In this document: positions 3,303 through 63,515 of the stretch, piece after piece
Position numbering within the stretch: position 1 is the first letter of the stretch
Layout of the letters: each line of letters opens with the position of its first letter
Made by a program: the position numbers and the translations under genes
Notes under the pieces: model-generated
What the model was told of the DNA's origin: nothing
Seen by the model: only the letters and a program-made list of their open reading frames with translations
Database searches by the model: none
Source of the DNA: Escherichia phage LH2
Strand: one strand, 5' to 3'
DNA length: 64,000 bases
Sequence record: OQ378934.1

Positions 3303-3332
3303 GTTTACTTTTCCTCTTGACTGTGGTATAAT
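3303..3332 (+). promoter_or_regulatory. T4-type early promoter (GTTTAC -35, TGGTATAAT -10)
   Basis: gtttac at 3303-3308, tataat at 3327-3332, upstream of regB. Confidence 0.55.
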
Positions 3333-3359
3333 TTTTCTATCAGTTAAGAGGAGAATAAC

Positions 3360-3821
3360 ATGACTATCAACACAGAAGTTTTTATCCGTCGAAATAAGCT
3401 TCGTCGTCACTTTGAGTCGGAGTTTCGTCAAATTAACAATGAGATTCGTGAGGCATCAAAAGCAGCAGGGGTCTCATCGTTTCATCTAAAATATTCTCAG
3501 CATCTTCTTGATCGTGCAATTCAACGGGAGATTGATGAGACATATGTTTTTGAATTATTCCATAAAATAAAAGACCATGTTTTAGAAGTTAATGAATTCC
3601 TGAGTATGCCTCCACGCCCTGATATTGACGAAGATTTTATTGATGGGGTTGAATATCGTCCTGGGCGTTTAGAAATCACAGATGGAAATCTTTGGCTTGG
3701 ATTTACAGTTTGTAAACCTAATGCGAAGTTCAAAGACCCGTCACTTCAGTGCAGGATGGCAATTATCAATAGTCGTCGTTTACCAGGAAAGGCTTCTAAA
3801 GCAGTAATTAAAACTCAATGA
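3360..3821 (+). CDS. regB: Sequence-specific endoribonuclease RegB
   Basis: 153 aa, same length as T4 RegB; MTINTEVFIRRNKLRRHFESEF...; position between denV and tk. Confidence 0.85.
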   Translation: MTINTEVFIRRNKLRRHFESEFRQINNEIREASKAAGVSSFHLKYSQHLLDRAIQREIDETYVFELFHKIKDHVLEVNEFLSMPPRPDIDEDFIDGVEYRPGRLEITDGNLWLGFTVCKPNAKFKDPSLQCRMAIINSRRLPGKASKAVIKTQ

Positions 3822-7135: not shown

Positions 7136-7165
7136 GTTTACTTTCCATTTGAGCTGTGATACTAT
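7136..7165 (+). promoter_or_regulatory. T4-type early promoter
   Basis: gtttac at 7136-7141; -10-like tactat about 18 nt downstream. Confidence 0.5.
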
Positions 7166-7193
7166 ACAACTATCGGATAAAGAGGAGAACATC

Positions 7194-7947: not shown

Positions 7948-7977
7948 GTTTACAAGCTGGCAAGGTTATGGTATAGT
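7948..7977 (+). promoter_or_regulatory. T4-type early promoter
   Basis: gtttac 7948-7953; tatagt 7972-7977. Confidence 0.5.
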
Positions 7978-8112
7978 AATCTTGTCAACTGCCAAGGAGA
8001 AGAGAATGAAAATTTTGTTTGTTGTGTATGTGATGATTCAATATAATTACCCAATGTTTACTTATAATCTAGTGAACAACATTATTGATATTATTCAAAG
8101 GAGTATGTAATT

Positions 8113-10672: not shown

Positions 10673-10674
10673 TA

Positions 10675-10699
10675 GGGAGCCTTCGGGCTCCCTTTTTTT
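10675..10699 (+). terminator. Intrinsic terminator
   Basis: gggagc-cttcgg-gctccc followed by ttttttt. Confidence 0.65.
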
Positions 10700-10704
10700 A
10701 TTTC

Positions 10705-10787
10705 AAAAAATTTTCACAAAACAGTTTACAAGCATAAAGCTTTATGGTACTATACAACTATCAACTGATACGGATTTGGAGAATAAA
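10705..10787 (+). repeat. Promoter-leader cassette (PeSL-like), copy A
   Basis: gtttac at 10724-10729 ... tggtactatacaactatcaac ... ttggagaataaaATG; same core as copies at 12163, 37471, 56551. Confidence 0.6.
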
Positions 10788-11756
10788 ATGAAAACTGTAA
10801 CTATCAATAAGGGTATCTACTTCGGTAAAGAAATCTCTGGAACTTTTGAGCTCTTAGGCGAATGGTTCCCAGATAATGCTCCGGTAGATGCACAAGGAGA
10901 TGGTAAAGTTTTTGTTGAAATTGACGGTAAACGTCGCGGTGTTTGGGTTTACAAATCAGATATTTCATATGATGGTGTAAAAGTTGAAGAAGTTAAAGAA
11001 TCGTATGAAGATATGAAAACCCGCATTAACAAAAGATTTAATGTTATGGGAATGATGACGAATGGTATTATTAACGGAAATATTCGTTCATTGATTATCT
11101 CTGGCGCAGCAGGTATTGGTAAAACGTATTCTTTAGATAAAGCTTTAAATAAAGCAAATGATATTGGATACATTGAATATAAAAGCATTAATGGTAAAAT
11201 CTCTGGTATTGGTCTTTATGAACAGCTTTGGAATAATCGTGAAGAGAATTCTGTCCTTTTGATTGATGATGTGGATGTTTTCTCTGATATGGACATTCTT
11301 AATCTTCTAAAAGCCGCTCTGGACACCGGAGAGACCCGTAAAGTCTGCTGGAGCACTGCATCTTCTTACTTAGAAGAAAAAGGCATTGACCGTGAGTTTG
11401 AATTTAAAGGAACGATTGTTTTTATCACAAACGTTGACATTGACCGCGAATTAGACCGTGGTACTAAACTTGCTCCACATTTACAAGCATTAGTGTCCCG
11501 CTCGGTTTATTTAGATTTGGGTGTTCACACTAATGAAGAAATTATGGTCAGGGTTGAAGATGTTATTCTTTCAACTGACATGATGCAAAAGCGTGGTCTT
11601 TCTGATGAAGAAACTTATAAAGCATTATCATGGATGAAAGTTAATGTTAACCGTTTACGCAATGTTTCACTGCGTACTGCTCTTTATCTTGCTGACTTTA
11701 TTATGACCGACAAAAACGGTTGGGAAGAAATTGCTGAGGTTACTCTTCTGAAATAA
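10788..11756 (+). CDS. P-loop ATPase (AAA-like)
   Basis: Walker A GAAGIGKT and Walker B VLLIDDVD; start placed at ATG supplied by the cassette, not the longer track ORF. Confidence 0.65.
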   Translation: MKTVTINKGIYFGKEISGTFELLGEWFPDNAPVDAQGDGKVFVEIDGKRRGVWVYKSDISYDGVKVEEVKESYEDMKTRINKRFNVMGMMTNGIINGNIRSLIISGAAGIGKTYSLDKALNKANDIGYIEYKSINGKISGIGLYEQLWNNREENSVLLIDDVDVFSDMDILNLLKAALDTGETRKVCWSTASSYLEEKGIDREFEFKGTIVFITNVDIDRELDRGTKLAPHLQALVSRSVYLDLGVHTNEEIMVRVEDVILSTDMMQKRGLSDEETYKALSWMKVNVNRLRNVSLRTALYLADFIMTDKNGWEEIAEVTLLK

Positions 11757-11854: not shown

Positions 11855-12160
11855 ATGATGTTATACTCAAAGGCTCGTGAAATTTACGAAACTAAAATTA
11901 AAGAAGCAGTATTTCAGTTCGCAACGACAATGCGATGGACAAATGACTGGGAGTATTCAAAAAATCATAAGAAGCCCATGGTGACAAGAAAGGCTCATAT
12001 GTTAGTGTTAATAGACCGTGAGCAGATTAAAGCCCGAGAAGCCCTCCAGAATCATAAAAAGGCTGCCTTTGAATGGTTTATGGATAACACTGCTCCTGAG
12101 ACTAAGAAAGCAGTGAGCGCATGGTTCAGTGGAAAAAATTGTGAAAGAAGTTTCTTTTAG
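11855..12160 (+). CDS. Hypothetical protein
   Basis: SD GGAGG then clustered ATGs at 11855/11858; exact start uncertain. Confidence 0.45.
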   Translation: MMLYSKAREIYETKIKEAVFQFATTMRWTNDWEYSKNHKKPMVTRKAHMLVLIDREQIKAREALQNHKKAAFEWFMDNTAPETKKAVSAWFSGKNCERSFF

Positions 12161-12162
12161 TG

Positions 12163-12220
12163 GTTTACAAGACTGTTCCTCTGTGGTACTATACAACTAT
12201 CAACTACGGAGGAACAGAAA
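12163..12220 (+). repeat. Promoter-leader cassette (PeSL-like), copy B
   Basis: 42 nt (gtttacaagactgttcctctgtggtactatacaactatcaac) identical to 37487-37528. Confidence 0.6.
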
Positions 12221-12748
12221 ATGAACGCTAAAGATATTTTCAACTTGGTAAATTACAACGATGGTAAATTTAAATCTGAAGCACAAAGCAAGTTCTTTAA
12301 CGACATCTCAATCGGAGGTGAAATCACGGTTGATGGAGGACAAATTTACAAATCCCGTTGGAATTGGATCGTTATTATCGATGAGATTGGTATTGTAGAA
12401 ATTTACAAAAATACGAATAAAAATCGTACATTACACTGGTCTCGTGATACTAACGAACAGTACAAAAAGGATAAAGCATCTAAATTATCTCGTGTAACTC
12501 AAGAAGATATTGAGTTCATCAAGAAAGATATTTTAATGTATGATAACTTAATTGCTGAAGAGCAAGCTGTTATTGATAAATTTGACGAGATTAAAGCTTC
12601 TCGTGAAATTCCTGATTTTATGAAAGAATCAGTAAATGAACGATACACTCTCATTTCAGAGCGTATTGAAACTTACAAAAAGCAAAGAGCTGAACGCCAA
12701 AATACTCTTCGGAAGTTTGAAGAACGGTTAAAGACGGTACTCGCATAA
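12221..12748 (+). CDS. Hypothetical protein with C-terminal coiled-coil-like region
   Basis: 175-aa ORF following the cassette SD GGAGGA. Confidence 0.55.
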   Translation: MNAKDIFNLVNYNDGKFKSEAQSKFFNDISIGGEITVDGGQIYKSRWNWIVIIDEIGIVEIYKNTNKNRTLHWSRDTNEQYKKDKASKLSRVTQEDIEFIKKDILMYDNLIAEEQAVIDKFDEIKASREIPDFMKESVNERYTLISERIETYKKQRAERQNTLRKFEERLKTVLA

Positions 12749-14113: not shown

Positions 14114-15121
14114 ATGAAAACTCGTTCTCAAATTGAAGATATGGTTCGTAATGCCAGCTATACCCGTGATGTTATGACATTTTTGTGTGAAAATAATTTA
14201 GACCCCGATAAAGTTAATCGTGTTATTCATCACTTTAAGTATACGAATAGCAGTGAATGGGTGCGTAATTTTAGCGAAGCAGGGTATATTACGCAAATGA
14301 CGGCTCGTGAGCATCTCACCGATTTCTGTAAAACTATTGATTATAAAAATCCTCTATTTGTTCAAGGCGTCGGTCAAAGTAAGGTCGATTTATCATCTGG
14401 ATTTTTCAATCCAAATCATTATCGTATTGAATGGAGATTTATTGCTCTATTCCGTAAACAATTAAAACAAATTTTATCAACTGCGAGTCGATTAAAAGGT
14501 TCTGATATTAACTTAAAGAATCTGAAATTTGATGGTTATACTCTTCAGATGGAAGTAAGACCATTAAAAGAAAATAATAGAACTGCACGAATTAGCTTTA
14601 AACCTAATACAAAAAATTCTCTTTCAATTTGTGAATGCCTTAAATCGCAGTTAACAGAAGCATTTAAGTATATGGATGTTGTTGCTGTTGTTCAATCTAA
14701 GATTTTACCTCGTTTTGAGCGAAATTGGGAACATACAACAACATATGAACTTGATATGATCGTTTCATTTAAATACGATTTTTTGAGAAAGGACGAAGTC
14801 CCGCAAGAGAAAAAACCTGAACCCCAAACTAATTACTCATCAAACGATCCTAAATTTTGGATGTATAGCTCAAGCAATATAGATGCATGTAAACTTAATA
14901 AAGTGAGTTTTCTTCCTACTGAAAATTCAAATTTTAAACCTGTAGAAAAATGGCACGCTGACGCGATTGAGAAGTCTCTTAAGGCAGTAGATGATGAACT
15001 CGTTAAAGCGACCAATGAAGTGCTAGAAGCTGAAAAGGCGTTAGAACAAGCTCAGTCAAGGGTTCAAAATCTGACAAAGCAACGTTCTAAACTGAACAAT
15101 GCACTAAATGCACTGAACTAG
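14114..15121 (+). CDS. Hypothetical protein with C-terminal coiled-coil tail
   Basis: 335 aa; C-terminus ...LEAEKALEQAQSRVQNLTKQRSKLNNALNALN. Confidence 0.55.
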   Translation: MKTRSQIEDMVRNASYTRDVMTFLCENNLDPDKVNRVIHHFKYTNSSEWVRNFSEAGYITQMTAREHLTDFCKTIDYKNPLFVQGVGQSKVDLSSGFFNPNHYRIEWRFIALFRKQLKQILSTASRLKGSDINLKNLKFDGYTLQMEVRPLKENNRTARISFKPNTKNSLSICECLKSQLTEAFKYMDVVAVVQSKILPRFERNWEHTTTYELDMIVSFKYDFLRKDEVPQEKKPEPQTNYSSNDPKFWMYSSSNIDACKLNKVSFLPTENSNFKPVEKWHADAIEKSLKAVDDELVKATNEVLEAEKALEQAQSRVQNLTKQRSKLNNALNALN

Positions 15122-15150
15122 TTTACTTTGCCACAAGGATGTGGTATAAT
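15121..15150 (+). promoter_or_regulatory. T4-type early promoter
   Basis: gtttac 15121-15126; tggtataat ending at 15150; near-identical copy at 61069. Confidence 0.55.
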
Positions 15151-15178
15151 GTTCTTACTTTCTACTGAGGAGATTAAT

Positions 15179-16105
15179 ATGACTCGTAAACACTATATTG
15201 ATTATTTTGACAGTCTTATTACTAAACACCGTAATTATCAGATAGGACACAGAGCAGCAATCAATAATATTCTTCGTGATTTCCTTCAATATGTTGGACA
15301 GGAAAATCATATCTGTAAAGATACTCAAAACGCTTATTCTCATTCGTTAGGCAATTTGCTTGAATGGTTTAAACGTTCTCGTATGTTATCTTCTACTGTA
15401 GCTCGTGATAACATTGAAAACTTTATGAAGCCGAGCTTCATTAAATCTGAGACATCTATAACTGATTTGGTTGAATTTACTATTGTTAACGATGTTAAAA
15501 AGACCCATTTGGCTGATTGGTTATCTACCATTCCTGAAACTAAATTTGCTGATAAATTTGCTTGTCAATTCAATGACCAAGTGAATATGCTTTTTAAGCA
15601 TGCTCGTAAACTATTTACCGCGGGCGATGACCGTACAAATACAGTTCATGTTAAGGACTGGGTTATTGCTGATGAAGTAACACACAAGCCAGGTGGTTCA
15701 TCGGTATTAATTAATATCCAGGTTCCTTATTATTACTCACGTAATCTCGGCACCATGACAGCTAGAGAAATTAATAAGCACAACAAAACTATTCGTTCGT
15801 TGTCTTATAAACTCCGCATGATGCTAAAAATTATGGACGTAGTGGAAATGTATGATGAAACCGAAGATAATGGTTCAATGTTATACAGCTCACGCATTCT
15901 AATTAAACTGAAGAATCCTAATACATATAAGCCAGTTGTAAAAGAACCTAAAGTAGAAAAGGTTGATAACCTGAGCGAAGAACGCGAATATCTCAATGCT
16001 CGTTTGATTGAAGTTGAAGCCCAGATTGCCGAACACACCAAATTGTTAAAAGCTCTTAATGCAAAAGCAAATGGTTTACGTAATGCTATTGAGGTATTGA
16101 AATGA
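15179..16105 (+). CDS. Hypothetical protein with C-terminal coiled-coil tail
   Basis: Start at ATG downstream of the promoter with SD GAGGAG; C-terminus ...[33 protein letters not shown]. Confidence 0.55.
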   Translation: MTRKHYIDYFDSLITKHRNYQIGHRAAINNILRDFLQYVGQENHICKDTQNAYSHSLGNLLEWFKRSRMLSSTVARDNIENFMKPSFIKSETSITDLVEFTIVNDVKKTHLADWLSTIPETKFADKFACQFNDQVNMLFKHARKLFTAGDDRTNTVHVKDWVIADEVTHKPGGSSVLINIQVPYYYSRNLGTMTAREINKHNKTIRSLSYKLRMMLKIMDVVEMYDETEDNGSMLYSSRILIKLKNPNTYKPVVKEPKVEKVDNLSEEREYLNARLIEVEAQIAEHTKLLKALNAKANGLRNAIEVLK

Positions 16106-21249: not shown

Positions 21250-22072
21250 GTATTATATAATTTATAAAATAACAAATATAATTAATTCAAAGGAATATAT
21301 CGGTGCTCATAGCACCGATAATATAAATGATGGTTATATGGGATCAGGAAAATTGATTCATGCTGCTTTATTGAAATATGGCAGAAAAAATTTTTATAAA
21401 GAAATTTTACATGTTTTTGATAATGAAAAACAGATGTATGATAAAGAAGCTGAACTTGTAACTGAAGAGTATTGTCTAAAAGAAAACACATATAATATTA
21501 AACCTGGTGGCAAAGGTGGAACTGCCTATGAACAAACACTTGAACATCGCCGCAAAAATAGTTTAGCAAATAAAGGTAAAAAGAGAACAGCAGAAACTAA
21601 AATAGCTATTTCAAATGCTTTAAAGAACTATAAACGCACACCAGAACATCAAGCAAACATAAATAAAGCTGTAAGAACAGCCATGAAGCGAAAGGATGTT
21701 AGAAGTAAATTAACCGGAGAGCGTTCTGAGAAAGATAAATTATCTATATCAAACGGTGTTAAAAAATATTACAGTTCTTTGAGCGAAGAAGAACGTGAAC
21801 TTCATCGCAAGCGAATTATTGAAGGTAAAAAGAATTCTCCCATGACATTGGAATCCAGACAAAAACTTTCAAAATCTTTAAAAGGACTTCAAGTTGGTTC
21901 AAAAAATCCAATGTATGGAAAAATTTCTCCAACTAGCAAAACCGTTTCAGTTGACGGTATTAAATATGATTCAATTAAAAAATGCTCAAACGCCATAAAA
22001 GTTTCTAGACATCTTATATTAAAACGCTGTAATTCTACTGACGAAGCTTGGAAAAATTGGATATTATTATGA
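21242..22072 (+). CDS. Freestanding GIY-YIG homing endonuclease (Seg-like)
   Basis: YIIYKITNIINSKEYIGAHS...YMGSGKL GIY-YIG module plus NUMOD3 repeats; between nrdD and nrdG. Confidence 0.8.
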   Translation: MHRYYIIYKITNIINSKEYIGAHSTDNINDGYMGSGKLIHAALLKYGRKNFYKEILHVFDNEKQMYDKEAELVTEEYCLKENTYNIKPGGKGGTAYEQTLEHRRKNSLANKGKKRTAETKIAISNALKNYKRTPEHQANINKAVRTAMKRKDVRSKLTGERSEKDKLSISNGVKKYYSSLSEEERELHRKRIIEGKKNSPMTLESRQKLSKSLKGLQVGSKNPMYGKISPTSKTVSVDGIKYDSIKKCSNAIKVSRHLILKRCNSTDEAWKNWILL

Positions 22073-32664: not shown

Positions 32665-32699
32665 TTTATAATTTACATTAAAACTTGAATGAGGAAATT

Positions 32700-33659
32700 A
32701 TGATTACTGTAAATGAAAAAGAACACATTCTTGAACAGAAATATCGTCCATCTACTATCGATGAATGTATTCTTCCCGCCTTTGATAAAGAAACCTTTAA
32801 ATCTATTACAAGTAAAGGTAAGATTCCACATATTATTCTTCATTCTCCTTCTCCAGGAACAGGTAAAACAACTGTAGCAAAAGCGTTGTGTCATGATGTA
32901 AATGCTGATATGATGTTTGTGAATGGGTCAGATTGTAAAATTGATTTCGTTCGCGGTCCTTTGACTAATTTTGCTAGTGCAGCTTCATTTGATGGTCGTC
33001 AAAAAGTAATCGTTATTGATGAATTTGACCGTTCAGGGTTAGCAGAGTCTCAGCGACATCTTCGTTCCTTTATGGAAGCTTATAGTTCAAACTGTAGTAT
33101 TATTATTACTGCTAACAATATTGATGGTATTATTAAACCGCTTCAGTCACGCTGCCGAGTTATTACGTTCGGTCAACCGACCGATGAAGATAAAATTGAA
33201 ATGATGAAGCAGATGATTCGTCGATTGACTGAAATCTGTAAGCATGAAGGAATTGCTATAGCTGATATGAAAGTTGTAGCAGCTTTGGTTAAAAAGAATT
33301 TTCCTGATTTTCGTAAAACTATTGGCGAGCTCGATAGTTATTCGTCTAAAGGTGTTTTGGATGCTGGTATTTTATCACTGGTTACTAACGATCGTGGTGC
33401 TATTGATGATGTTCTTGAGTCTCTCAAAAATAAAGATGTTAAACAACTCAGAGCTTTAGCACCAAAATATGCGGCTGATTATTCGTGGTTCGTTGGTAAA
33501 CTTGCCGAAGAAATCTATACACGCGTAACTCCACAAAGTATTATTCGTATGTATGAAATTGTTGGTGAAAATAACCAGTATCACGGAATTGCGGCTAATA
33601 CGGAATTACATTTAGCATATCTTTTCATTCAATTGGCATGCGAAATGCAGTGGAAGTGA
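32700..33659 (+). CDS. 44: Clamp-loader ATPase subunit gp44
   Basis: 319 aa from ATG 32700; Walker [11 protein letters not shown]; Walker B VIVIDEFD. Confidence 0.9.
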
Positions 33660-34672: not shown

Positions 34673-37369
34673 ATGAAAGAATTTTATATCTCTATTGAAA
34701 CAGTCGGAAATAGCATTGTTGAACGTTATATTGATGAAAATGGAAAGGAACGTACTCGCGAAGTAGAATATCTTCCGACTATGTTTAGACACTGTAAGGA
34801 AGAATCAAAATACAAAGACATTTACGGTAAAAATTGCGCTCCTCAAAAATTTCCATCAATGAAAGATGCCCGAGATTGGATGAAACGAATGGAAGACATC
34901 GGTCTCGAAGCTCTTGGTATGAACGATTTTAAACTCGCTTATATCAGTGATACATATGGTTCAGAAATTGTTTATGATCGAAAATTTGTTCGTGTAGCTA
35001 ACTGCGACATTGAGGTTACTGGTGATAAATTTCCTGACCCAATGAAAGCAGAATATGAAATTGATGCTATCACTCATTATGATTCAATTGACGACCGTTT
35101 TTACGTCTTTGATTTGTTGAATTCAATGTACGGTTCAGTATCAAAATGGGATGCAAAGTTAGCTGCTAAGCTTGACTGTGAAGGTGGTGATGAAGTTCCT
35201 CAAGAAATTCTTGACCGAGTAATTTATATGCCATTCGATAATGAGCGTGATATGCTCATGGAATATATTAATCTCTGGGAACAGAAACGACCTGCTATTT
35301 TTACTGGTTGGAATATTGAGGGATTTGACGTTCCGTATATCATGAATCGTGTTAAAATGGTTCTCGGTGAACGTAGTATGAAACGTTTCTCTCCAATCGG
35401 TCGAGTAAAATCTAAACTAATTCAAAATATGTACGGTAGCAAAGAAATTTATTCTATTGATGGCGTATCTATTCTTGATTATTTAGATTTGTACAAGAAA
35501 TTCGCATTTACTAATTTGCCATCATTCTCTTTGGAATCAGTTGCTCAACATGAAACCAAAAAAGGTAAATTACCATATGATGGTCCTATTAATAAACTTC
35601 GTGAGACTAATCATCAACGATACATTAGTTATAACATCATTGACGTAGAATCAGTTCAAGCAATTGATAAAATTCGCGGGTTTATTGATCTAGTTTTAAG
35701 TATGTCTTATTACGCTAAAATGCCTTTTTCTGGTGTAATGAGTCCTATTAAAACTTGGGATGCTATTATTTTTAACTCATTGAAAGGTGAACATAAGGTT
35801 ATTCCTCAACAAGGTTCGCACGTTAAACAAAGTTTTCCAGGTGCATTTGTGTTTGAACCTAAACCGATTGCTCGTCGATACATTATGAGTTTTGACTTGA
35901 CGTCTCTGTATCCTAGCATTATTCGTCAGGTTAACATTAGTCCTGAAACTATTCGTGGACAGTTTAAAGTTCATCCAATTCATGAATATATCGCAGGAAC
36001 AGCTCCTAAGCCAAGTGATGAATATTCTTGTTCTCCGAATGGATGGATGTATGATAAGCATCAAGAAGGTATCATTCCAAAGGAAATCGCTAAAGTATTT
36101 TTCCAGCGTAAAGATTGGAAAAAGAAAATGTTCGCTGAAGAAATGAATGCCGAAGCTATTAAAAAGATTATTATGAAAGGTGCAGGGTCTTGTTCAACTA
36201 AACCAGAAGTTGAACGATATGTTAAGTTCAATGATGATTTCTTAAACGAATTATCGAATTACACTGAATCTGTTCTTAATAGTCTGATCGAAGAATGTGA
36301 AAAAGCAGCTACACTTGCTAACACAAATCAGCTGAACCGTAAAATTCTTATTAACAGTCTTTATGGTGCTCTTGGTAATATTCATTTCCGTTACTATGAT
36401 TTGCGAAATGCTACTGCTATCACAATTTTCGGTCAAGTTGGTATTCAGTGGATTGCTCGTAAAATTAATGAATATCTGAATAAAGTATGTGGAACTGATG
36501 GTGAAGATTTCATCGCGGCGGGTGATACTGATTCGGTATATGTTTGTGTAGATAAAGTTATTGAAAAAGTAGGTCTTGACCGCTTTAAAGAACAAAATGA
36601 TTTAGTTGAATTCATGAATCAGTTCGGTAAGAAAAAGATGGAACCTATGATTGATGTTGCATATCGTGAGTTATGTGATTATATGAATAACCGCGAGCAT
36701 CTGATGCATATGGACCGTGAAGCTATTTCTTGCCCTCCACTTGGTTCAAAGGGTGTTGGTGGATTTTGGAAAGCGAAAAAACGTTATGCTCTGAACGTTT
36801 ATGATATGGAAGATAAGCGATTTGCTGAACCACATCTAAAAATCATGGGTATGGAAACTCAGCAGAGTTCAACACCAAAAGCAGTACAAGAAGCTCTCGA
36901 AGAAAGTATTCGTCGTATTCTTCAGGAAGGCGAAGAGTCTGTCCAAGAATACTATAAGAACTTTGAGAAAGAATACCGTCAACTTGACTATAAAGTTATT
37001 GCTGAAGTAAAAACCGCGAACGATATAGCGAAATATGACGATAAAGGTTGGCCAGGGTTTAAATGCCCGTTCCATATTCGTGGTGTACTAACTTATCGTC
37101 GAGCTGTTAGTGGTTTAGGTGTAGCTCCAATTTTGGATGGAAATAAGGTAATGGTTCTTCCATTACGTGAGGGAAATCCATTTGGTGACAAGTGTATTGC
37201 TTGGCCGTCGGGTACGGAACTTCCAAAAGAAATTCGTTCTGATGTACTGTCTTGGATTGACTACTCAACTTTGTTCCAAAAATCGTTTGTTAAACCGCTT
37301 GCGGGCATGTGTGAATCGGCAGGTATGGACTATGAGGAAAAAGCTTCGTTAGACTTCCTGTTTGGCTGA
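34673..37369 (+). CDS. 43: DNA polymerase gp43 (family B)
   Basis: 898 aa; exonuclease motifs (DIEV, YNIIDV) and polymerase motifs (DLTSLYPSI, YGDTDS, KKRY). Confidence 0.95.
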   Translation: MKEFYISIETVGNSIVERYIDENGKERTREVEYLPTMFRHCKEESKYKDIYGKNCAPQKFPSMKDARDWMKRMEDIGLEALGMNDFKLAYISDTYGSEIVYDRKFVRVANCDIEVTGDKFPDPMKAEYEIDAITHYDSIDDRFYVFDLLNSMYGSVSKWDAKLAAKLDCEGGDEVPQEILDRVIYMPFDNERDMLMEYINLWEQKRPAIFTGWNIEGFDVPYIMNRVKMVLGERSMKRFSPIGRVKSKLIQNMYGSKEIYSIDGVSILDYLDLYKKFAFTNLPSFSLESVAQHETKKGKLPYDGPINKLRETNHQRYISYNIIDVESVQAIDKIRGFIDLVLSMSYYAKMPFSGVMSPIKTWDAIIFNSLKGEHKVIPQQGSHVKQSFPGAFVFEPKPIARRYIMSFDLTSLYPSIIRQVNISPETIRGQFKVHPIHEYIAGTAPKPSDEYSCSPNGWMYDKHQEGIIPKEIAKVFFQRKDWKKKMFAEEMNAEAIKKIIMKGAGSCSTKPEVERYVKFNDDFLNELSNYTESVLNSLIEECEKAATLANTNQLNRKILINSLYGALGNIHFRYYDLRNATAITIFGQVGIQWIARKINEYLNKVCGTDGEDFIAAGDTDSVYVCVDKVIEKVGLDRFKEQNDLVEFMNQFGKKKMEPMIDVAYRELCDYMNNREHLMHMDREAISCPPLGSKGVGGFWKAKKRYALNVYDMEDKRFAEPHLKIMGMETQQSSTPKAVQEALEESIRRILQEGEESVQEYYKNFEKEYRQLDYKVIAEVKTANDIAKYDDKGWPGFKCPFHIRGVLTYRRAVSGLGVAPILDGNKVMVLPLREGNPFGDKCIAWPSGTELPKEIRSDVLSWIDYSTLFQKSFVKPLAGMCESAGMDYEEKASLDFLFG

Positions 37370-37382
37370 TAGAATAAATCTA

Positions 37383-37404
37383 GGGACCTCCGGGTCCCCT
37401 TTTC
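37383..37404 (+). terminator. Intrinsic terminator after gene 43
   Basis: gggacc-tccg-ggtccc then cttttc. Confidence 0.55.
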
Positions 37405-37470
37405 ATACAAGTAATATAAATCTATACTTAAGAAAAATAGATGATTCTAGGACCTTTGAATTCATTAAAA

Positions 37471-37550
37471 AATTTTTCACAAAGCTGTTTACAAGACTGT
37501 TCCTCTGTGGTACTATACAACTATCAACCAATACAAATTTGGAGAATGAA
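37471..37550 (+). repeat. Promoter-leader cassette (PeSL-like), copy C
   Basis: Contains the 42-nt block identical to 12163-12204 and the ttggagaatgaaATG leader. Confidence 0.6.
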
Positions 37551-37931
37551 ATGAAAATCGCTATTTTGGTTATTGCATTGGGTCTTACTGGTTGTGTAGC
37601 TCAAGGACCGGTAGTAAATCAGTCTGATGTAGGAAAAATTGTAAACTGTTCAAGCAAATTTTATAATCCTAACGTCAAGTGTTATAAAGAAGTTCCAAAA
37701 CAGACAGTAGAACAAATGCAGGCGAATTTTGACGAAGCTATTCGTCCAGATGAATCTGCACAAGCATATCGTAATTCAGATGTGATTACGCGTGAAGAAA
37801 AAATTGAAAACTACTGTGCTGAACTTTGGGCAAATTGGGCTAATAATTACCAATGGCGTACTGGTAAAAATGCTCCGATGGAGTATGTAGTAAATTCTTA
37901 TAATTCATGTGTAAAAAATTTGACTAAGTGA
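37551..37931 (+). CDS. Lipoprotein
   Basis: MKIAILVIALGLTGC lipobox; start supplied by the cassette. Confidence 0.6.
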   Translation: MKIAILVIALGLTGCVAQGPVVNQSDVGKIVNCSSKFYNPNVKCYKEVPKQTVEQMQANFDEAIRPDESAQAYRNSDVITREEKIENYCAELWANWANNYQWRTGKNAPMEYVVNSYNSCVKNLTK

Positions 37932-39927: not shown

Positions 39928-40593
39928 ATGAAAAGACATAAAGAAAAGAAATATAATTATACTTATGTTATAACTAATTTAGTTAATAATAAAATTTACT
40001 ATGGAACTCATTCAACCGATGATTTAAATGATGGTTATATGGGATCAGGAACTTTATTAGCACAAGCCAAGAAAAAGTATGGTAAGAAAAATTTTAATTT
40101 AAGCATTCTTGGGTTTTATAAAGATTTTAAATCAGCCCGTGATGCTGAAAGAGAATTAGTAACAATAGATGTGGTAAATGATCCTATGACTTATAATTTA
40201 AAAATTGGTGGAGAGGGTGGTAGAAGAATTGGTTATAGAGTTTCATCAGAAACCAAAGAAAAAATTTCAAAAGCTCAAAAAGGAAAACCAAAACATCTTG
40301 GATTTAGTGATGTTTGCCGGAAAGCCCAGCTAGGCAAAAAGCAGTCAGAAGAAACTAAAGCAAAACGAAAAGAAGCTTTGCTTAATAATCCATATGGTTA
40401 TAATAGAAATAAACCATCACATAAACGTGACCCAATAATGTGGGATAACATTGAAAAGATTAAAGAAATATGGGAAAACTCTGGAAAACCCGGTGCTATT
40501 AAGCTTAAAAAATTAGCAATTGAAGCTGGATTTCCAAATAAATCTTATGCAAGAATGCTCGAAGTATTTCGTGGAACAAGAACACTACTATAA
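39928..40593 (+). CDS. Freestanding GIY-YIG homing endonuclease (Seg-like)
   Basis: YVITNLVNNKIYYGTHS...YMGSGTLL; paralog of the 21242 ORF; NUMOD3-like repeats. Confidence 0.75.
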   Translation: MKRHKEKKYNYTYVITNLVNNKIYYGTHSTDDLNDGYMGSGTLLAQAKKKYGKKNFNLSILGFYKDFKSARDAERELVTIDVVNDPMTYNLKIGGEGGRRIGYRVSSETKEKISKAQKGKPKHLGFSDVCRKAQLGKKQSEETKAKRKEALLNNPYGYNRNKPSHKRDPIMWDNIEKIKEIWENSGKPGAIKLKKLAIEAGFPNKSYARMLEVFRGTRTLL

Positions 40594-43551: not shown

Positions 43552-43580
43552 TTTACAAGCTGACAAGACTATGGTATAGT
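43551..43580 (+). promoter_or_regulatory. T4-type early promoter with palindromic -10 region
   Basis: gtttac 43551-43556; tatagt 43575-43580 inside acaagact...agtcttgt inverted repeat. Confidence 0.5.
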
Positions 43581-43609
43581 AGTCTTGTTGGTTAAATGAG
43601 GAGATCGTT

Positions 43610-54849: not shown

Positions 54850-54879
54850 GTTTACTTCCTCGGTTAGTTGTGGTATTAT
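54850..54879 (+). promoter_or_regulatory. T4-type early promoter
   Basis: gtttac 54850-54855; tattat 54874-54879. Confidence 0.5.
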
Positions 54880-54906
54880 AACACCATAGCTACTGAGGAT
54901 AATAAA

Positions 54907-56028: not shown

Positions 56029-56517
56029 ATGATTATTAATATTGGTGAAATTGCTCGTGTATCTGATAAATCCCGTTCTAAAGCAGCAGGAAAATTGGTC
56101 GAAATTGTAAGCATTCAGCTTAAACACGGTGTTAAAGATGAAGATTCTGAAGTAAAAGTTCGTATCATTCCTAAAGATGGAAAGTCTAAACCTCAGTTTG
56201 GTTATGTTCGCGCGAAATTTCTTGAATCTGCGTTTTTGAAAGCTGTTCCTGCTAAAGGAATTGAAACGATTGATACTTCGCATGTAGGTGTAGACTTTAA
56301 GTGGAAACTCGGTCAAGCTATTAAGTTCGTTGCTCCTTATGAATTTAACTTTATCAAAGACGATGGAAGGGTTGTTTATACTCGTGCTATGTGTGGATAC
56401 ATTACCGATCAATGGGTAGAAGATGGTGTTAAGCTGTACAATGTGGTATTTTTAGGAACATACAAAGTCATTCCTGAAAGTTGGATTAAACACTATAGCA
56501 ATGCTCTCTATGCATAA
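56029..56517 (+). CDS. Hypothetical protein (tandem paralog 2)
   Basis: 162 aa; C-terminal block ...CGYITDQWVEDGVKLYNVV... shared with the 55410 ORF. Confidence 0.5.
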   Translation: MIINIGEIARVSDKSRSKAAGKLVEIVSIQLKHGVKDEDSEVKVRIIPKDGKSKPQFGYVRAKFLESAFLKAVPAKGIETIDTSHVGVDFKWKLGQAIKFVAPYEFNFIKDDGRVVYTRAMCGYITDQWVEDGVKLYNVVFLGTYKVIPESWIKHYSNALYA

Positions 56518-56550
56518 AGTTTAAATTTTTTCATAAAACTATATACATCA

Positions 56551-56628
56551 GTAGTTGATTATGGTACTATATCAATATCAACTACTGATACAGAAAACAA
56601 CTTGGAGAATAAAATGGAAATTCGCTAA
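56551..56628 (+). repeat. Promoter-leader cassette (PeSL-like), copy D, carrying a 4-codon micro-ORF
   Basis: tggtactatatcaatatcaac ... ttggagaataaaATGGAAATTCGCTAA; leader conserved with copies A and C but ORF stops after MEIR. Confidence 0.5.
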
Positions 56629-56687
56629 AGGTGCTGATACTCTTCTGAAACGCATCGCTCCAATGTTCAATTAATGAGGAAATTGTA

Positions 56688-56903
56688 ATGAAACGTAAAA
56701 TTGTTCAGAATTGCACTAATGATGAATTTGAAGATGTATTATTCGATCCAGATTTGGTAGTAGTTCAAAAGGAACATACTAGCAAGTTTACTCACTTGAC
56801 TTCGGTTTATGTGTATGAGAAAGTCGGTGATAAACAGCCAATTTATGGTGTATTTCGTGAAATTACTGAAGATGGCACAACTTACTGGAAGGAAATTTAT
56901 TAA
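56688..56903 (+). CDS. Hypothetical protein
   Basis: 71 aa; SD GAGGAAA. Confidence 0.5.
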
Positions 56904-57503: not shown

Positions 57504-57875
57504 ATGTTTAAAATCGGTAAGAAATATCGTGTTCGCGAAGGTGAAGAAAAGAAATATCTACTTTCTTCTATTTATAGGAATGGTTCTATTAATGCCGTAA
57601 TATCTACAAGTGAATTTATCGTTGAAGATATGAAAGGTAATAATGTTACAATGATTAGTACATCATCTGGAAATGATGGAAAAATTCTTCACAGTTTTCA
57701 GAGTAATGTTCTAATTTATGATGAAGAATTTGACTTCTTCGAAGAAGTTCCTGAAGATTTTGATTTTGGATGCACCATCACTATGAAATCTGGCGACCCT
57801 CTTTCTTTTACAGTTAAAGATGAAAGAAGTCGCTTGAGAATTATTAGTCTCCTTCAAGCCATTAAATTTGAGTGA
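57504..57875 (+). CDS. Hypothetical protein
   Basis: ATG 57504; 123 aa. Confidence 0.5.
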   Translation: MFKIGKKYRVREGEEKKYLLSSIYRNGSINAVISTSEFIVEDMKGNNVTMISTSSGNDGKILHSFQSNVLIYDEEFDFFEEVPEDFDFGCTITMKSGDPLSFTVKDERSRLRIISLLQAIKFE

Positions 57876-57879
57876 AATT

Positions 57880-61123: not shown

Positions 61124-61327
61124 ATGAAATCATATAAAGTAAATTTAGAACTATTTGATAAAGCAGTTCATCGAGAATATAGAATCATTCAACGCTTTTT
61201 CGATATGGGAGAAGCCGAAGAGTTTAAAAACCGCTTTAAGGATATTAGAGATAAAATTCAATCCGACACTGCAACTAAAGATGAACTACTAGAAGTTGCT
61301 GAAGTTATTAAACGCAATATGAATTAA
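61124..61327 (+). CDS. Hypothetical protein (rIIA.1 position)
   Basis: 67-aa ORF immediately upstream of rIIA. Confidence 0.5.
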
Positions 61328-61337
61328 TGAGGAAATT

Positions 61338-63515
61338 ATGATTATCACCACTGAAAAAGAAACAATTCTTGGTAATGGTTCTAAATCAAAAGCATTTAGC
61401 ATCACAGCGTCTCCTAAAGTATTTAAAATTCTGTCATCTGATTTGTATACAAACAAGATTCGCGCAGTGGTTCGTGAATTGATTACCAACATGATTGATG
61501 CCCATGCTCTTAATGGAAATCCTGAAAAATTTATCATTCAAGTTCCAGGACGATTAGATCCGCGATTTGTTTGCCGAGATTTTGGTCCGGGTATGAGCGA
61601 TTTTGATATTCAGGGTGATGATAATTCTCCTGGGTTGTATAATTCATACTTTAGTTCATCTAAGGCTGAATCTAATGATTTCATTGGTGGATTTGGTTTA
61701 GGTTCTAAATCTCCGTTTAGTTATACTGATACATTTAGTATTACTTCGTACCATAAAGGCGAAATTCGTGGTTATGTAGCTTACATGGATGGTGATGGTC
61801 CGCAGATTAAACCTACATTCGTAAAAGAAATGGGTCCAAATGATAAAACTGGTATTGAAATCGTAGTTCCAGTTGAAGAAAAAGATTTTAGAAACTTTGC
61901 TTATGAAGTTTCTTATATCATGCGACCGTTCAAAGATTTGGCTATCATTAATGGTCTTGACCGCGAAATTGATTATTTTCCGGATTTTGATGACTATTAC
62001 GGTGTAAATCCAGAAAGATATTGGCCAGATCGTGGTGGATTGTATGCTATCTATGGTGGTATTGTTTATCCTATCGATGGTGTTATTAGAGACCGTAACT
62101 GGTTAAGCATCCGCAATGAAGTGAATTACATTAAGTTTCCAATGGGTTCACTTGATATTGCTCCATCGCGTGAGGCTCTTTCATTAGATGATCGTACTCG
62201 TAAAAATATTATTGAGCGTGTTAAAGAGCTCAGTGAGCAGGCATTTAATGAAGATGTAAAACGATTTAAAGAATCTACATCTCCTCGTCATACATACCGT
62301 GAATTGATGAAGATGGGATATTCTGCTCGAGATTATATGATTAGCAATTCAGTCAAATTTACGACTAAAAATCTGTCATATAAAAAGATGCAGAGCATGT
62401 TTGAACCTGACAGTAAGTTATGCAATGCAGGGGTTGTGTATGAAGTAAATCTTGACCCTCGACTGAAACGCATTAAGCAAAGCCATGAAACTTCAGCCGT
62501 TGCGTCAAGCTATCGTCTGTTTGGTATTAATACGACAAAAATTAATATTGTTATTGATAATATTAAAAATCGTGTTAATATTGTCCGTGGATTAGCACGT
62601 GCATTAGATGATAGTGAATTTAATAACACTTTAAATATTCATCACAATGAGCGTCTTCTGTTTATTAATCCGGAAGTAGAATCGCAGATTGATTTGCTTC
62701 CTGATATTATGGCAATGTTTGAAAGTGATGAAGTTAACATTCATTATTTGTCAGAAATTGAAGCTTTAGTTAAAAGTTATATTCCAAAGGCAGTAAAAAG
62801 TACAGCTCCTCGTCCTAAAACTGCCACTGCGTTTAAGTTTGAAATTAAAGACGGGCGCTGGGAAAAAGAGGAACTGTTTACGCTCACATCAGAAGCAGAT
62901 GAAATTACTGGTTATGTAGCATATATGCATCGTTCTGATATTTTCTCTATGGATGGTACTACATCGCTTTGTAATCCATCTACGAGTATTTTGACCCGTA
63001 TGGCTAATCTTATTGGCATTAATGAATTTTATGTTATTCGTCCACTTTTGCAGAAAAAGGTAAAAGAACTTGGTCAGTGCCAATGTATTTTTGAAACTCT
63101 GCGTGATTTATATGTAGATGCTTTTGATGCTGTAGATTATGATAAGTATGTAGGTTATTCGAGTTCAGCTAAACGATATATTGATAAAATTATCAAGTAT
63201 CCTGAACTAGATTTTATGATGAAGTACTTCAGTGTAGATGAAGTTTCCGAAGAATATACTCGCCTTGGTAATATGGTTAGTTCATTGCAGGGTATATATT
63301 TCAACGGTGGAAAAGATACCATCGGTCATGACATCTGGACAGTAACTAATCTTTTTGAAACACTATCATATAATGCTTCAAAAAACAGTGATAAAATGGT
63401 TGCTGAGTTTACCAAGAAATTCCGTATTGTTTCCGATTTCATCGGTTATCGCAACTCTTTAAGTGATGATGAAGTTTCCCAAATCGCTAAAACTATGAAG
63501 GCCCTTGCGGCCTAA
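61338..63515 (+). CDS. rIIA: Rapid-lysis protein rIIA
   Basis: 725 aa; ATPase-like N-terminal domain; length and position match T4 rIIA. Confidence 0.92.

Follow-up and report, generated by a model that had tools for sequence, protein, structure and literature searches.

Repeated early-expression cassettes before unrelated small genes in Escherichia phage LH2, a case of promoter-early-stem-loop elements

Introduction

Why should one promoter and translation start recur, nearly letter for letter, in front of genes that do not resemble one another? The question is raised by a stretch of 64,000 nucleotides (nt) of Escherichia phage LH2 (OQ378934.1; hereafter, the window), in which a preliminary description had pointed to four such sites and had likened them to the promoter-early-stem-loop (PeSL) elements of T4-type phages. 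Megablast places the window in Tequatrovirus, with 96-98% identity to KIT06, ime09, BW-1 and others. The answer proposed here, to which we give a probability of about 0.8, is that the four sites are portable T-even early-expression cassettes that recombine and thereby swap small open reading frames (ORFs). The phenomenon itself is already known: all sequence-level features of PeSLs are present, and the sites are therefore correctly recognized as elements of a published type, in the phage group from which that type was described.

A cassette family before unrelated genes

The window covers a T4-like early region in the opposite orientation to the T4 map (NC_000866), so that all early genes lie on its plus strand. 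Beginning at gene e, it passes the start of the T4 record and extends to T4 coordinate 168431, with 16 insertions/deletions (indels) or replacements relative to T4. The members of the family are listed here, with UP standing for the A/T-rich upstream region and SD for the Shine-Dalgarno sequence.

10701-10790, plus strand: site 1 cassette (nrdC.11/nrdC.10), with an A/T-rich UP region, -35 GTTTAC at 10724-10729, TG at 10745-10746, -10 TACTAT at 10748-10753, the ACAACTATCAAC block at 10754-10765, GGAG at 10778-10781 and ATG at 10788.
12163-12223, plus strand: site 2 cassette (nrdC.9/nrdC.8), with -35 at 12163-12168, -10 at 12187-12192, core at 12184-12204, GGAGG at 12208-12212 and ATG at 12221.
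37465-37553, plus strand: site 3 cassette (gene 43/imm.1), with a UP region, -35 at 37487-37492, -10 at 37511-37516, core at 37508-37528, GGAG at 37541-37544 and ATG at 37551.
56520-56616, plus strand: site 4 cassette, between motB (which ends at 56517) and cef (56688-56903), with a UP region, a -35-like TATACA at 56542-56547, -10 at 56565-56570, a diverged core at 56562-56582, GGAG at 56604-56607 and ATG at 56614.
7136-7177, plus strand: a fifth, partial member, overlooked in the preliminary description; an early promoter with core TGATACTATACAACTATCGGA (4 mismatches) and a terminator hairpin upstream, orthologous to the T4 promoter upstream of mobD.5.

At all four sites first reported, the sequences proved to be as described. 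The 21-nt TGGTACTATACAACTATCAAC, put forward as their common core, occurs exactly at 10745-10765, 12184-12204 and 37508-37528 and with 3 mismatches at 56562-56582; 100 dinucleotide-preserving shuffles gave 0 matches. Site 4 lacks GTTTACAAG and is a diverged member, whose -35 is TATACA (5/6 to TTTACA). The leader TTGGAGAATRAAATG, claimed for three sites, is found at 10776, 37539 and 56602, for an expected number of 0.09, and no shuffle gave three copies. The promoter is of one type throughout (TTTACA or TATACA, a 17-bp spacer and TG-n-TACTAT, with the TG at -15/-14 in sites 1-3), and at the four sites an SD of GGAG or GGAGG lies 6-9 nt 5' of the ATG.

Position-by-position comparison of 16 early-promoter-like sites collected from the plus strand showed that the similarity is not confined to the -35 and -10 hexamers and extends well beyond them. 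Pairwise identity among the four sites is 75-100% over the 12 nt that follow the -10, versus 34% +/- 13% for 66 pairs of other promoters (maximum 67%). A stretch of 42 nt, non-consensus spacer included (14/14), is identical at sites 2 and 3; sites 1 and 3 reach 82% identity over 93 nt and have the UP region (81%) and the leader in common. Other early promoters also form unusually similar pairs (7948-7985/43551-43588, 15119-15150/61067-61098 and 7100-7165/47740-47805), with identities that include 89% over 38 nt and 97% over 32 nt and, in one such pair, a common terminator hairpin and UP/-35 region (CTCCTTCGGGAG...TTTTTTCATTTTACCGGTTTACTTTCC); several cassette sub-families are therefore present in the genome.

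The genes behind the cassettes are indeed unrelated: their proteins gave no mutual BLASTP match below E = 0.2, and gene duplication was rejected as the source of the repeat because of this dissimilarity. Site 1 precedes nrdC.10 (10788-11756), which had been called an ATPase and matches P-loop/AAA families only weakly, below the Pfam cut-offs. The upstream part of site 2 overlaps the 3' end of nrdC.9 (stop codon at 12158-12160), and this cassette would drive nrdC.8 (12221-12748), for which no Pfam match was found. The lipoprotein expected behind site 3 is the product of imm.1 (37551-37931), a DUF5481 protein with an LTGC lipobox.

An A/T-rich tract of the AAAAAATTTTCACAAA type is found at sites 1, 3 and 4 and is weaker at site 2, where it falls in the coding end of nrdC.9. 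Among the four sites, only 1 and 3 have a GC-rich terminator hairpin upstream, and sites 2 and 4 have an inverted repeat that brackets the -10. These stem-loops are as follows.

10674-10700, plus strand: site 1 intrinsic-terminator hairpin after nrdC.11, found by a terminator scan and forming the stem-loop part of the cassette; GGGAGCC-TTCG-GGCTCCC followed by a T7 run, with an RNA fold of -16.2 kcal/mol (z = -4.0).
12173-12217, plus strand: site 2 inverted repeat of 15 bp, with the 5' arm CTGTTCCTCTGTGGT at 12173-12187 in the promoter spacer and the 3' arm ACTACGGAGGAACAG, which contains the SD, at 12203-12217.
37383-37398, plus strand: site 3 terminator-like hairpin after gene 43 (stop codon at 37367-37369), ~66 nt 5' of the UP region, with a fold of -12.8 kcal/mol.
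56547-56559 and 56575-56587: site 4 inverted repeat, a perfect 13 bp bracketing the -10, with a hairpin of -20.2 kcal/mol (z = -6.3).

The family extends beyond the window. Over 70 positions, identity to the T4 orthologue is 67/70 for site 1, 67-68/70 for sites 2 and 4, and 60/70 for site 3. T4 has at least 8 exact or near-exact cores before unrelated genes, all on the early strand. The 21-nt core is exact before nrdC.10, nrdC.8, imm.1, e.8 and motA, and again upstream of ndd.6, where a short ORF of 8 codons (MKIAEIEL*) comes next and has the same first four codons as imm.1; close variants stand before frd.3, cef, mobD.5, ndd.4, trna.4 and denV. In IMG/VR, the exact core was found 22 times, in a handful of T-even contigs and with 8 different ORFs downstream, and in one of these genomes (L031) an ndd.4-like gene carries the entire nrdC.8 cassette, from the -35 through the SD. 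The ACAACTATC block is present at only ~9 of 38 T4 promoter-like sites and is therefore the mark of a sub-family and not part of a general early-promoter consensus.

Chimeric cassettes and indel junctions

Gene content around the cassettes, as compared across T4-like genomes, differs at sites 1, 3 and 4, with junctions that lie inside the cassettes. Insertion/deletion junctions in this position are the signature of PeSLs (Arbiol et al., 2010; Comeau et al., 2014), which bears out the interpretation first offered for these sites. Some members of the repeat family are, in addition, chimeras.

Site 1 exists in four states: with no insert (window, T4 and ime09), with a modB-like module only (BW-1), with an orf93/DUF4031 module only (KIT06), or with both (ACG-C40, in the order nrdC.11, modB-like module, orf93 and DUF4031 module, nrdC.10). 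On either side of the modB-like module lie the same 37 nt, a perfect direct repeat that consists of the terminator T-run, the UP region and the -35 and of which the window has a single copy; the site 1 hairpin and UP region likewise flank the insert in BW-1 and ACG-C40. In KIT06, the site 1 cassette is joined to orf93 via ATGAAAACT, the first three codons of nrdC.10, while nrdC.10 itself has a different promoter with the same TTGGAGAATAAAATGAAAACT; the repeat at the KIT06 junctions measures 21 nt. As for the modB-like ORF itself, it encodes 161 amino acids (aa), is annotated as an ADP-ribosylase and has no Pfam match (877-1362 of the ACG-C40 locus, L009); in BW-1 (L005, 2301-2785) it is broken into two ORFs, so that the module is apparently decaying there.

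The site 3 cassette is chimeric. Its UP region and leader are site-1-like, and its spacer is that of window site 2 (14/14) but agrees with the spacer of its own T4 orthologue at only 11/14. In phage WL-3, the cassette at this locus drives a 78-aa membrane-type ORF that lies exactly between two ATGAAAAT repeats, and imm.1 comes after this ORF with a different ribosome site. WL-3 and two phages from IMG/VR (L022 and L030) have an e.8-type spacer at the same locus.

Site 4 had been thought to deliver its expression signals to nothing. This is true insofar as only a 4-codon ORF follows; what follows is nonetheless the scar of a deletion in an 89-aa ORF.

56614-56674, plus strand: site 4 deletion scar, with ATG, 3 codons and a stop (56614-56628) and then an out-of-frame C-terminal remnant ending in KFAKGADTLLKRIAPMFN*.

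A four-way alignment identifies the source of the scar as the 89-aa ORF RB51ncORF009c, which is intact behind the cassette in RB51 and N2. In both the window and T4, ~213 bp have been lost between the microhomologies ATGGAAAA and ATGTAAAA, leaving the remnant KFAKG..LLKRIAP. The two scars are not quite the same, as 56614-56628 reads ATGGAAATTC in the window and the corresponding T4 positions 6555-6545 read ATGGAAAATTC, with one A more in T4; neither version puts the C-terminal remnant back in frame.

Selection, accretion or exchange between cassettes

Several observations weigh against cassettes as agents of gene exchange. At site 2, the comparison with relatives showed no polymorphism. The inserts of site 1 keep a constant position, at one locus per genome, in 44 records for the modB-like module and 155 for the orf93/DUF4031 module; the data therefore show presence or absence of modules together with cassette chimerism, not hopping between loci, and inter-locus mobility was dropped as unsupported. 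Only 2 of the 16 differences between the window and T4 abut early-promoter cassettes (the ipII/ipIII loss at 733-740 and the nrdC.4 loss at 15182-15198), versus ~0.8 by chance. This is not significant, so an enrichment of cassettes at these breakpoints was rejected, and many of the remaining indels involve mob/seg homing-endonuclease genes. Furthermore, T4 and the window have one and the same 21-nt core at every orthologous site, so that purifying selection on promoter function contributes to the similarity. Finally, the site 4 deletion and the site 3 indel used only 7-8 nt of homology, within the usual range for T4, so that the cassettes may be merely one source of microhomology among others.

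The invariance of the core and the lack of enrichment at breakpoints would both be expected if selection alone were at work, favoring a very strong promoter and an efficient translation start; the copies would be convergent or conserved, with no role in rearrangements, and cassettes would then lie near indels simply since every early intergenic region has a promoter. That T4 early promoters have a consensus reaching beyond the hexamers (Hinton, 2010) is also in keeping with this. Selection alone does not account, however, for paralogous sites with identical non-consensus spacers, nor for different spacer types at one orthologous locus among phages, and the block after the -10 is too rare among T4 promoter-like sites (~9/38) to belong to the general consensus. 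Three independent indels with junctions in repeated sequence, and one module with a perfect 37-nt flanking repeat, argue in the same direction, and we consider this explanation improbable.

The short junctions at sites 3 and 4 lend themselves to another account, in which genes accrete in the manner of morons, each bringing its own promoter, by illegitimate recombination at microhomologies of 6-10 bp, with the cassettes as passengers that supply A/T-rich microhomology. T4 does recombine readily at microhomologies of 2-10 bp (Srikant et al., 2022), and the modB-like and orf93/DUF4031 modules each have a promoter of their own. The junction repeats of these two modules (37 nt for the modB-like one, 21 nt in KIT06) nevertheless exceed microhomology, the chimeric cassettes imply that copies 25 kb apart have undergone homologous exchange, and the left junction coincides with the start codon of the cassette in three cases. 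Accretion by microhomology thus seems as unlikely as selection alone, and recombination between portable cassettes is the reading retained here.

How the cassettes may work

As reconstructed from the copies compared, a complete cassette would measure ~90 nt. Its 5' part would comprise, sometimes after a terminator hairpin, an A/T-rich UP region, a -35 of (G)TTTACA, a 17-bp spacer and the extended -10 TGGTACTAT; its 3' part would hold the initial transcribed block ACAACTATCAAC, a short leader, a GGAG SD and an ATG that is usually followed by AAA. We infer promoter activity, the recombination pathway and any circular intermediates. Judging from the sequence and from T4 orthologues that are catalogued early promoters, the host sigma-70 RNA polymerase would fire the cassettes right after infection. 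Since the GGAG of the SD is the motif cut by the T4 nuclease RegB, expression may then be limited to the first minutes.

With about a dozen copies per genome, in the same orientation and with 20-60 nt of near-perfect identity, the cassettes would be a ready substrate for recombination; the T4 machinery needs short homology only, and copies of this kind are therefore usable for exchange. Gene-conversion patches between cassettes could give rise to chimeras such as site 3 and to the varied spacer types at one orthologous locus, and spacer mosaics would be the expected product of gene conversion or crossover in the common 21-nt core. Unequal crossovers could insert, delete or replace ORF modules between or behind cassettes. 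An ORF landing beside a cassette would gain a promoter, an SD, a start codon and sometimes its first 2-4 codons.

Relation to known systems

PeSLs were defined in phages RB49 and phi1 as elements in which an A/T-rich region and an early promoter are combined with a stem-loop, an SD and an ATG; the stem-loop takes one of five positions, including between or overlapping the promoter boxes (Arbiol et al., 2010; PMC2839356). PeSLs cluster in hyperplastic regions and border indels, and their recombination in the stretch from the -10 to the ATG yields mini-circles (Arbiol et al., 2010; PMC2839356). They were later extended to T4/PST and KVP40/nt-1, with a T4/PST consensus of TTTACW-N17-TAYWAT (Comeau et al., 2014; PMC4122927). 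The LH2 cassettes share the composite layout, the presence of many copies in plastic early regions (five members in the window, at least 8 exact or near-exact ones in T4) and the position beside ORF insertions, deletions and replacements between close relatives. They also follow the consensus, with TTTACA-17-TACTAT at sites 1-3 and TATACA-17-TACTAT at site 4. A stable stem-loop is present at each site, abutting the UP region at site 1, ~66 nt upstream at site 3 and formed by 15-bp and 13-bp repeats around the -10 at sites 2 and 4, and the 3' end of all four cassettes supplies the SD and start codon of the downstream ORF. Indel junctions in or at the element occur at sites 1, 3 and 4; at site 1, the crossover falls between the -10 and the ATG, as in the published mini-circles. 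Differences are that the sub-family described here is set by a 21-nt block over the -10 and +1 regions together with a common leader, and that its stem-loop varies in position, while those of T4/PST lie just upstream of the promoter (Comeau et al., 2014; PMC4122927). For the window cassettes, promoter and terminator activity is predicted from the sequence.

T4 early promoters are reportedly the subject of studies by Liebig and Rüger in 1989 and by Wilkens and Rüger in 1994. In common with T4 early promoters as reviewed by Hinton (2010), the cassettes have a UP element, a GTTTAC -35 and a TGn-extended -10, and the four sites are orthologues of T4 sites. They differ in having TACTAT in place of TATAAT and in the ACAACTATCAAC block, which is absent from most T4 early promoters. 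A literature search for T4 transcription-start maps found nothing usable.

Another parallel is offered by the ip loci, for which Comeau et al. (2014; PMC4122927) cite Repoila et al. (1994). As far as the latter work is relayed by Arbiol et al. (2010), early-promoter repeats flank interchangeable small genes there too, although the promoter sub-family and the loci are different. The window has an ipIII-type promoter at 689-718, joined to denV, and lacks ipII and ipIII. At 689-746, the ipIII early promoter of T4 is thus fused straight to denV and 1,094 bp with ipIII and ipII are absent; in T4, this segment has an early-promoter cassette at each border.

Like morons and integron cassettes, the modules considered here are single genes with their own expression signals that accumulate at permissive sites, and site 1 can be seen as a small array of 0, 1 or 2 modules. 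Morons, in the sense of Hendrix and colleagues in 2000, are reportedly thought to insert by illegitimate recombination. Integron arrays differ in that they depend on a site-specific integrase acting on attI/attC, whereas no attC-type site is found here and the junction repeats consist of promoter and leader; among the annotated genes around site 1 in relatives of the window (nrdC.11 to nrdC.4, mobD.x), there was no integrase.

Spacers that pair with their own leaders

The site 2 inverted repeat joins the promoter spacer to the SD of the same transcription unit, with the -10 and the predicted transcription start in the loop. The region 12130-12225 folds with -28.3 kcal/mol (z = -3.8), and the spacer/leader duplex reaches -18.5 kcal/mol (p < 0.004 versus shuffled spacers), the best of 16 possible partners. 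Variation within Tequatrovirus is too limited for covariation to be assessed; in the nrdC.8 orthologues of Dhakavirus, an SD-containing hairpin is kept with a different sequence.

Site 2 is not isolated in this respect. Spacer/leader complementarity exceeds that of shuffled spacers in 7 of the 16 early promoters of the window, sites 2 and 4 included, and spacers complementary to their own leader, often over the SD, are seen at 689-746, 7954-7991, 43557-43594 and 54856-54900. In T4, cognate spacer/leader duplexes average -10.0 versus -6.5 kcal/mol for non-cognate ones (Mann-Whitney p = 0.0015), and the cognate partner is the best of 31 possible ones in 10 of 31 pairs. The regB promoter and leader (3303-3362) provide a further case, in which TTTTCCTCTTGACTG pairs with CAGTTAAGAGGAGAA (-21.8 kcal/mol; arms at 3309-3323 and 3341-3355). 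Mosigvirus and Gelderlandvirus retain this hairpin, although its loop-proximal sequences differ, and show compensatory changes: a manual register count over the three genera found all 39 of 39 scored cells paired, with three pair types at each of three positions. Nested variants are found in Karamvirus and Jiaodavirus.

These data raise the tentative possibility, which we think somewhat doubtful, that many T-even early spacers are anti-leader and often anti-SD arms, such that the ORF would be translated only from transcripts of its own early promoter. On a read-through transcript from upstream, the 5' arm would fold onto the SD and leave the ORF translationally silent; a transcript from its own promoter would be active. 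An anti-leader role could also be the reason for spacer conservation within sub-families. The principle has precedents in the T4 genes e, soc, 49 and I-TevI, the only cases of such hairpins, all at late promoters, given in a review of T4 translational control (Uzan and Miller, 2010). As in these, the transcription start at site 2 falls downstream of the 5' arm, the 3' arm lies over the SD, and only transcripts from its own promoter are predicted to leave the SD free; in contrast to the published cases, the 5' arm at site 2 is the spacer of an early promoter and its function is a prediction. No description of early-promoter spacer/leader hairpins was found in the literature searched, which did not extend to the older T4 work, and these hairpins may be undescribed so far.

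Other differences from T4

At 15121-15198, nrdC.4 (~1 kb in T4) is missing, and the BLAST segments on either side overlap by 17 nt at the region of the SD, the ATG and the first codons (ATGACTCGTAA...), a pattern that points to the loss of DNA between short direct repeats located at the starts of two genes. T4 also lacks a 371-nt segment that the window has at 57506-57878 and whose counterpart in RB51 and N2 is RB32ORF005c; this further accessory-gene polymorphism has no early-promoter cassette at its borders.

A 45-nt direct repeat (21306-21350 and 40007-40051; 89% identical, ...GATGGTTATATGGGATCAGGAA) lies in regions that replace T4 mobC and sequence of the beta-gt/segA region, and is probably a conserved motif of two related genes of the homing-endonuclease type. 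The regions 32688-32733 and 61326-61371, which map to gene 44 and rIIA, have a common translation-initiation region, AATGAGGAAATTATGATTA..., with similar first codons, and the cef start at 56676-56690 (AATGAGGAAATTGTAATG) is similar to both. This likeness may reflect a common RegA-type operator or translation-initiation region.

Biological significance

Several of the accessory genes concerned are anti-defense genes; nrdC.5, for instance, counters Dsr1. The cassettes would explain how small accessory genes of this sort are swapped in T4-like phages without upsetting the neighboring transcription units, as an ORF placed behind a cassette would be expressed at once after infection. This principle has been published already, and the window adds well-resolved examples of it: a four-state locus, a fusion at a start codon, a deletion scar and a chimeric cassette that points to exchange between copies 25 kb apart.

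Among the leads offered by the window, the spacer/anti-SD hairpins most deserve to be pursued. If their proposed role were true, the late-promoter hairpin principle would extend to the early class, and cassette chimeras such as site 3 of the window, which holds an orphan 5' arm of the spacer/leader hairpin, would uncouple this control. Pairing between spacer and leader would then be a general means of tying translation to the promoter of origin.

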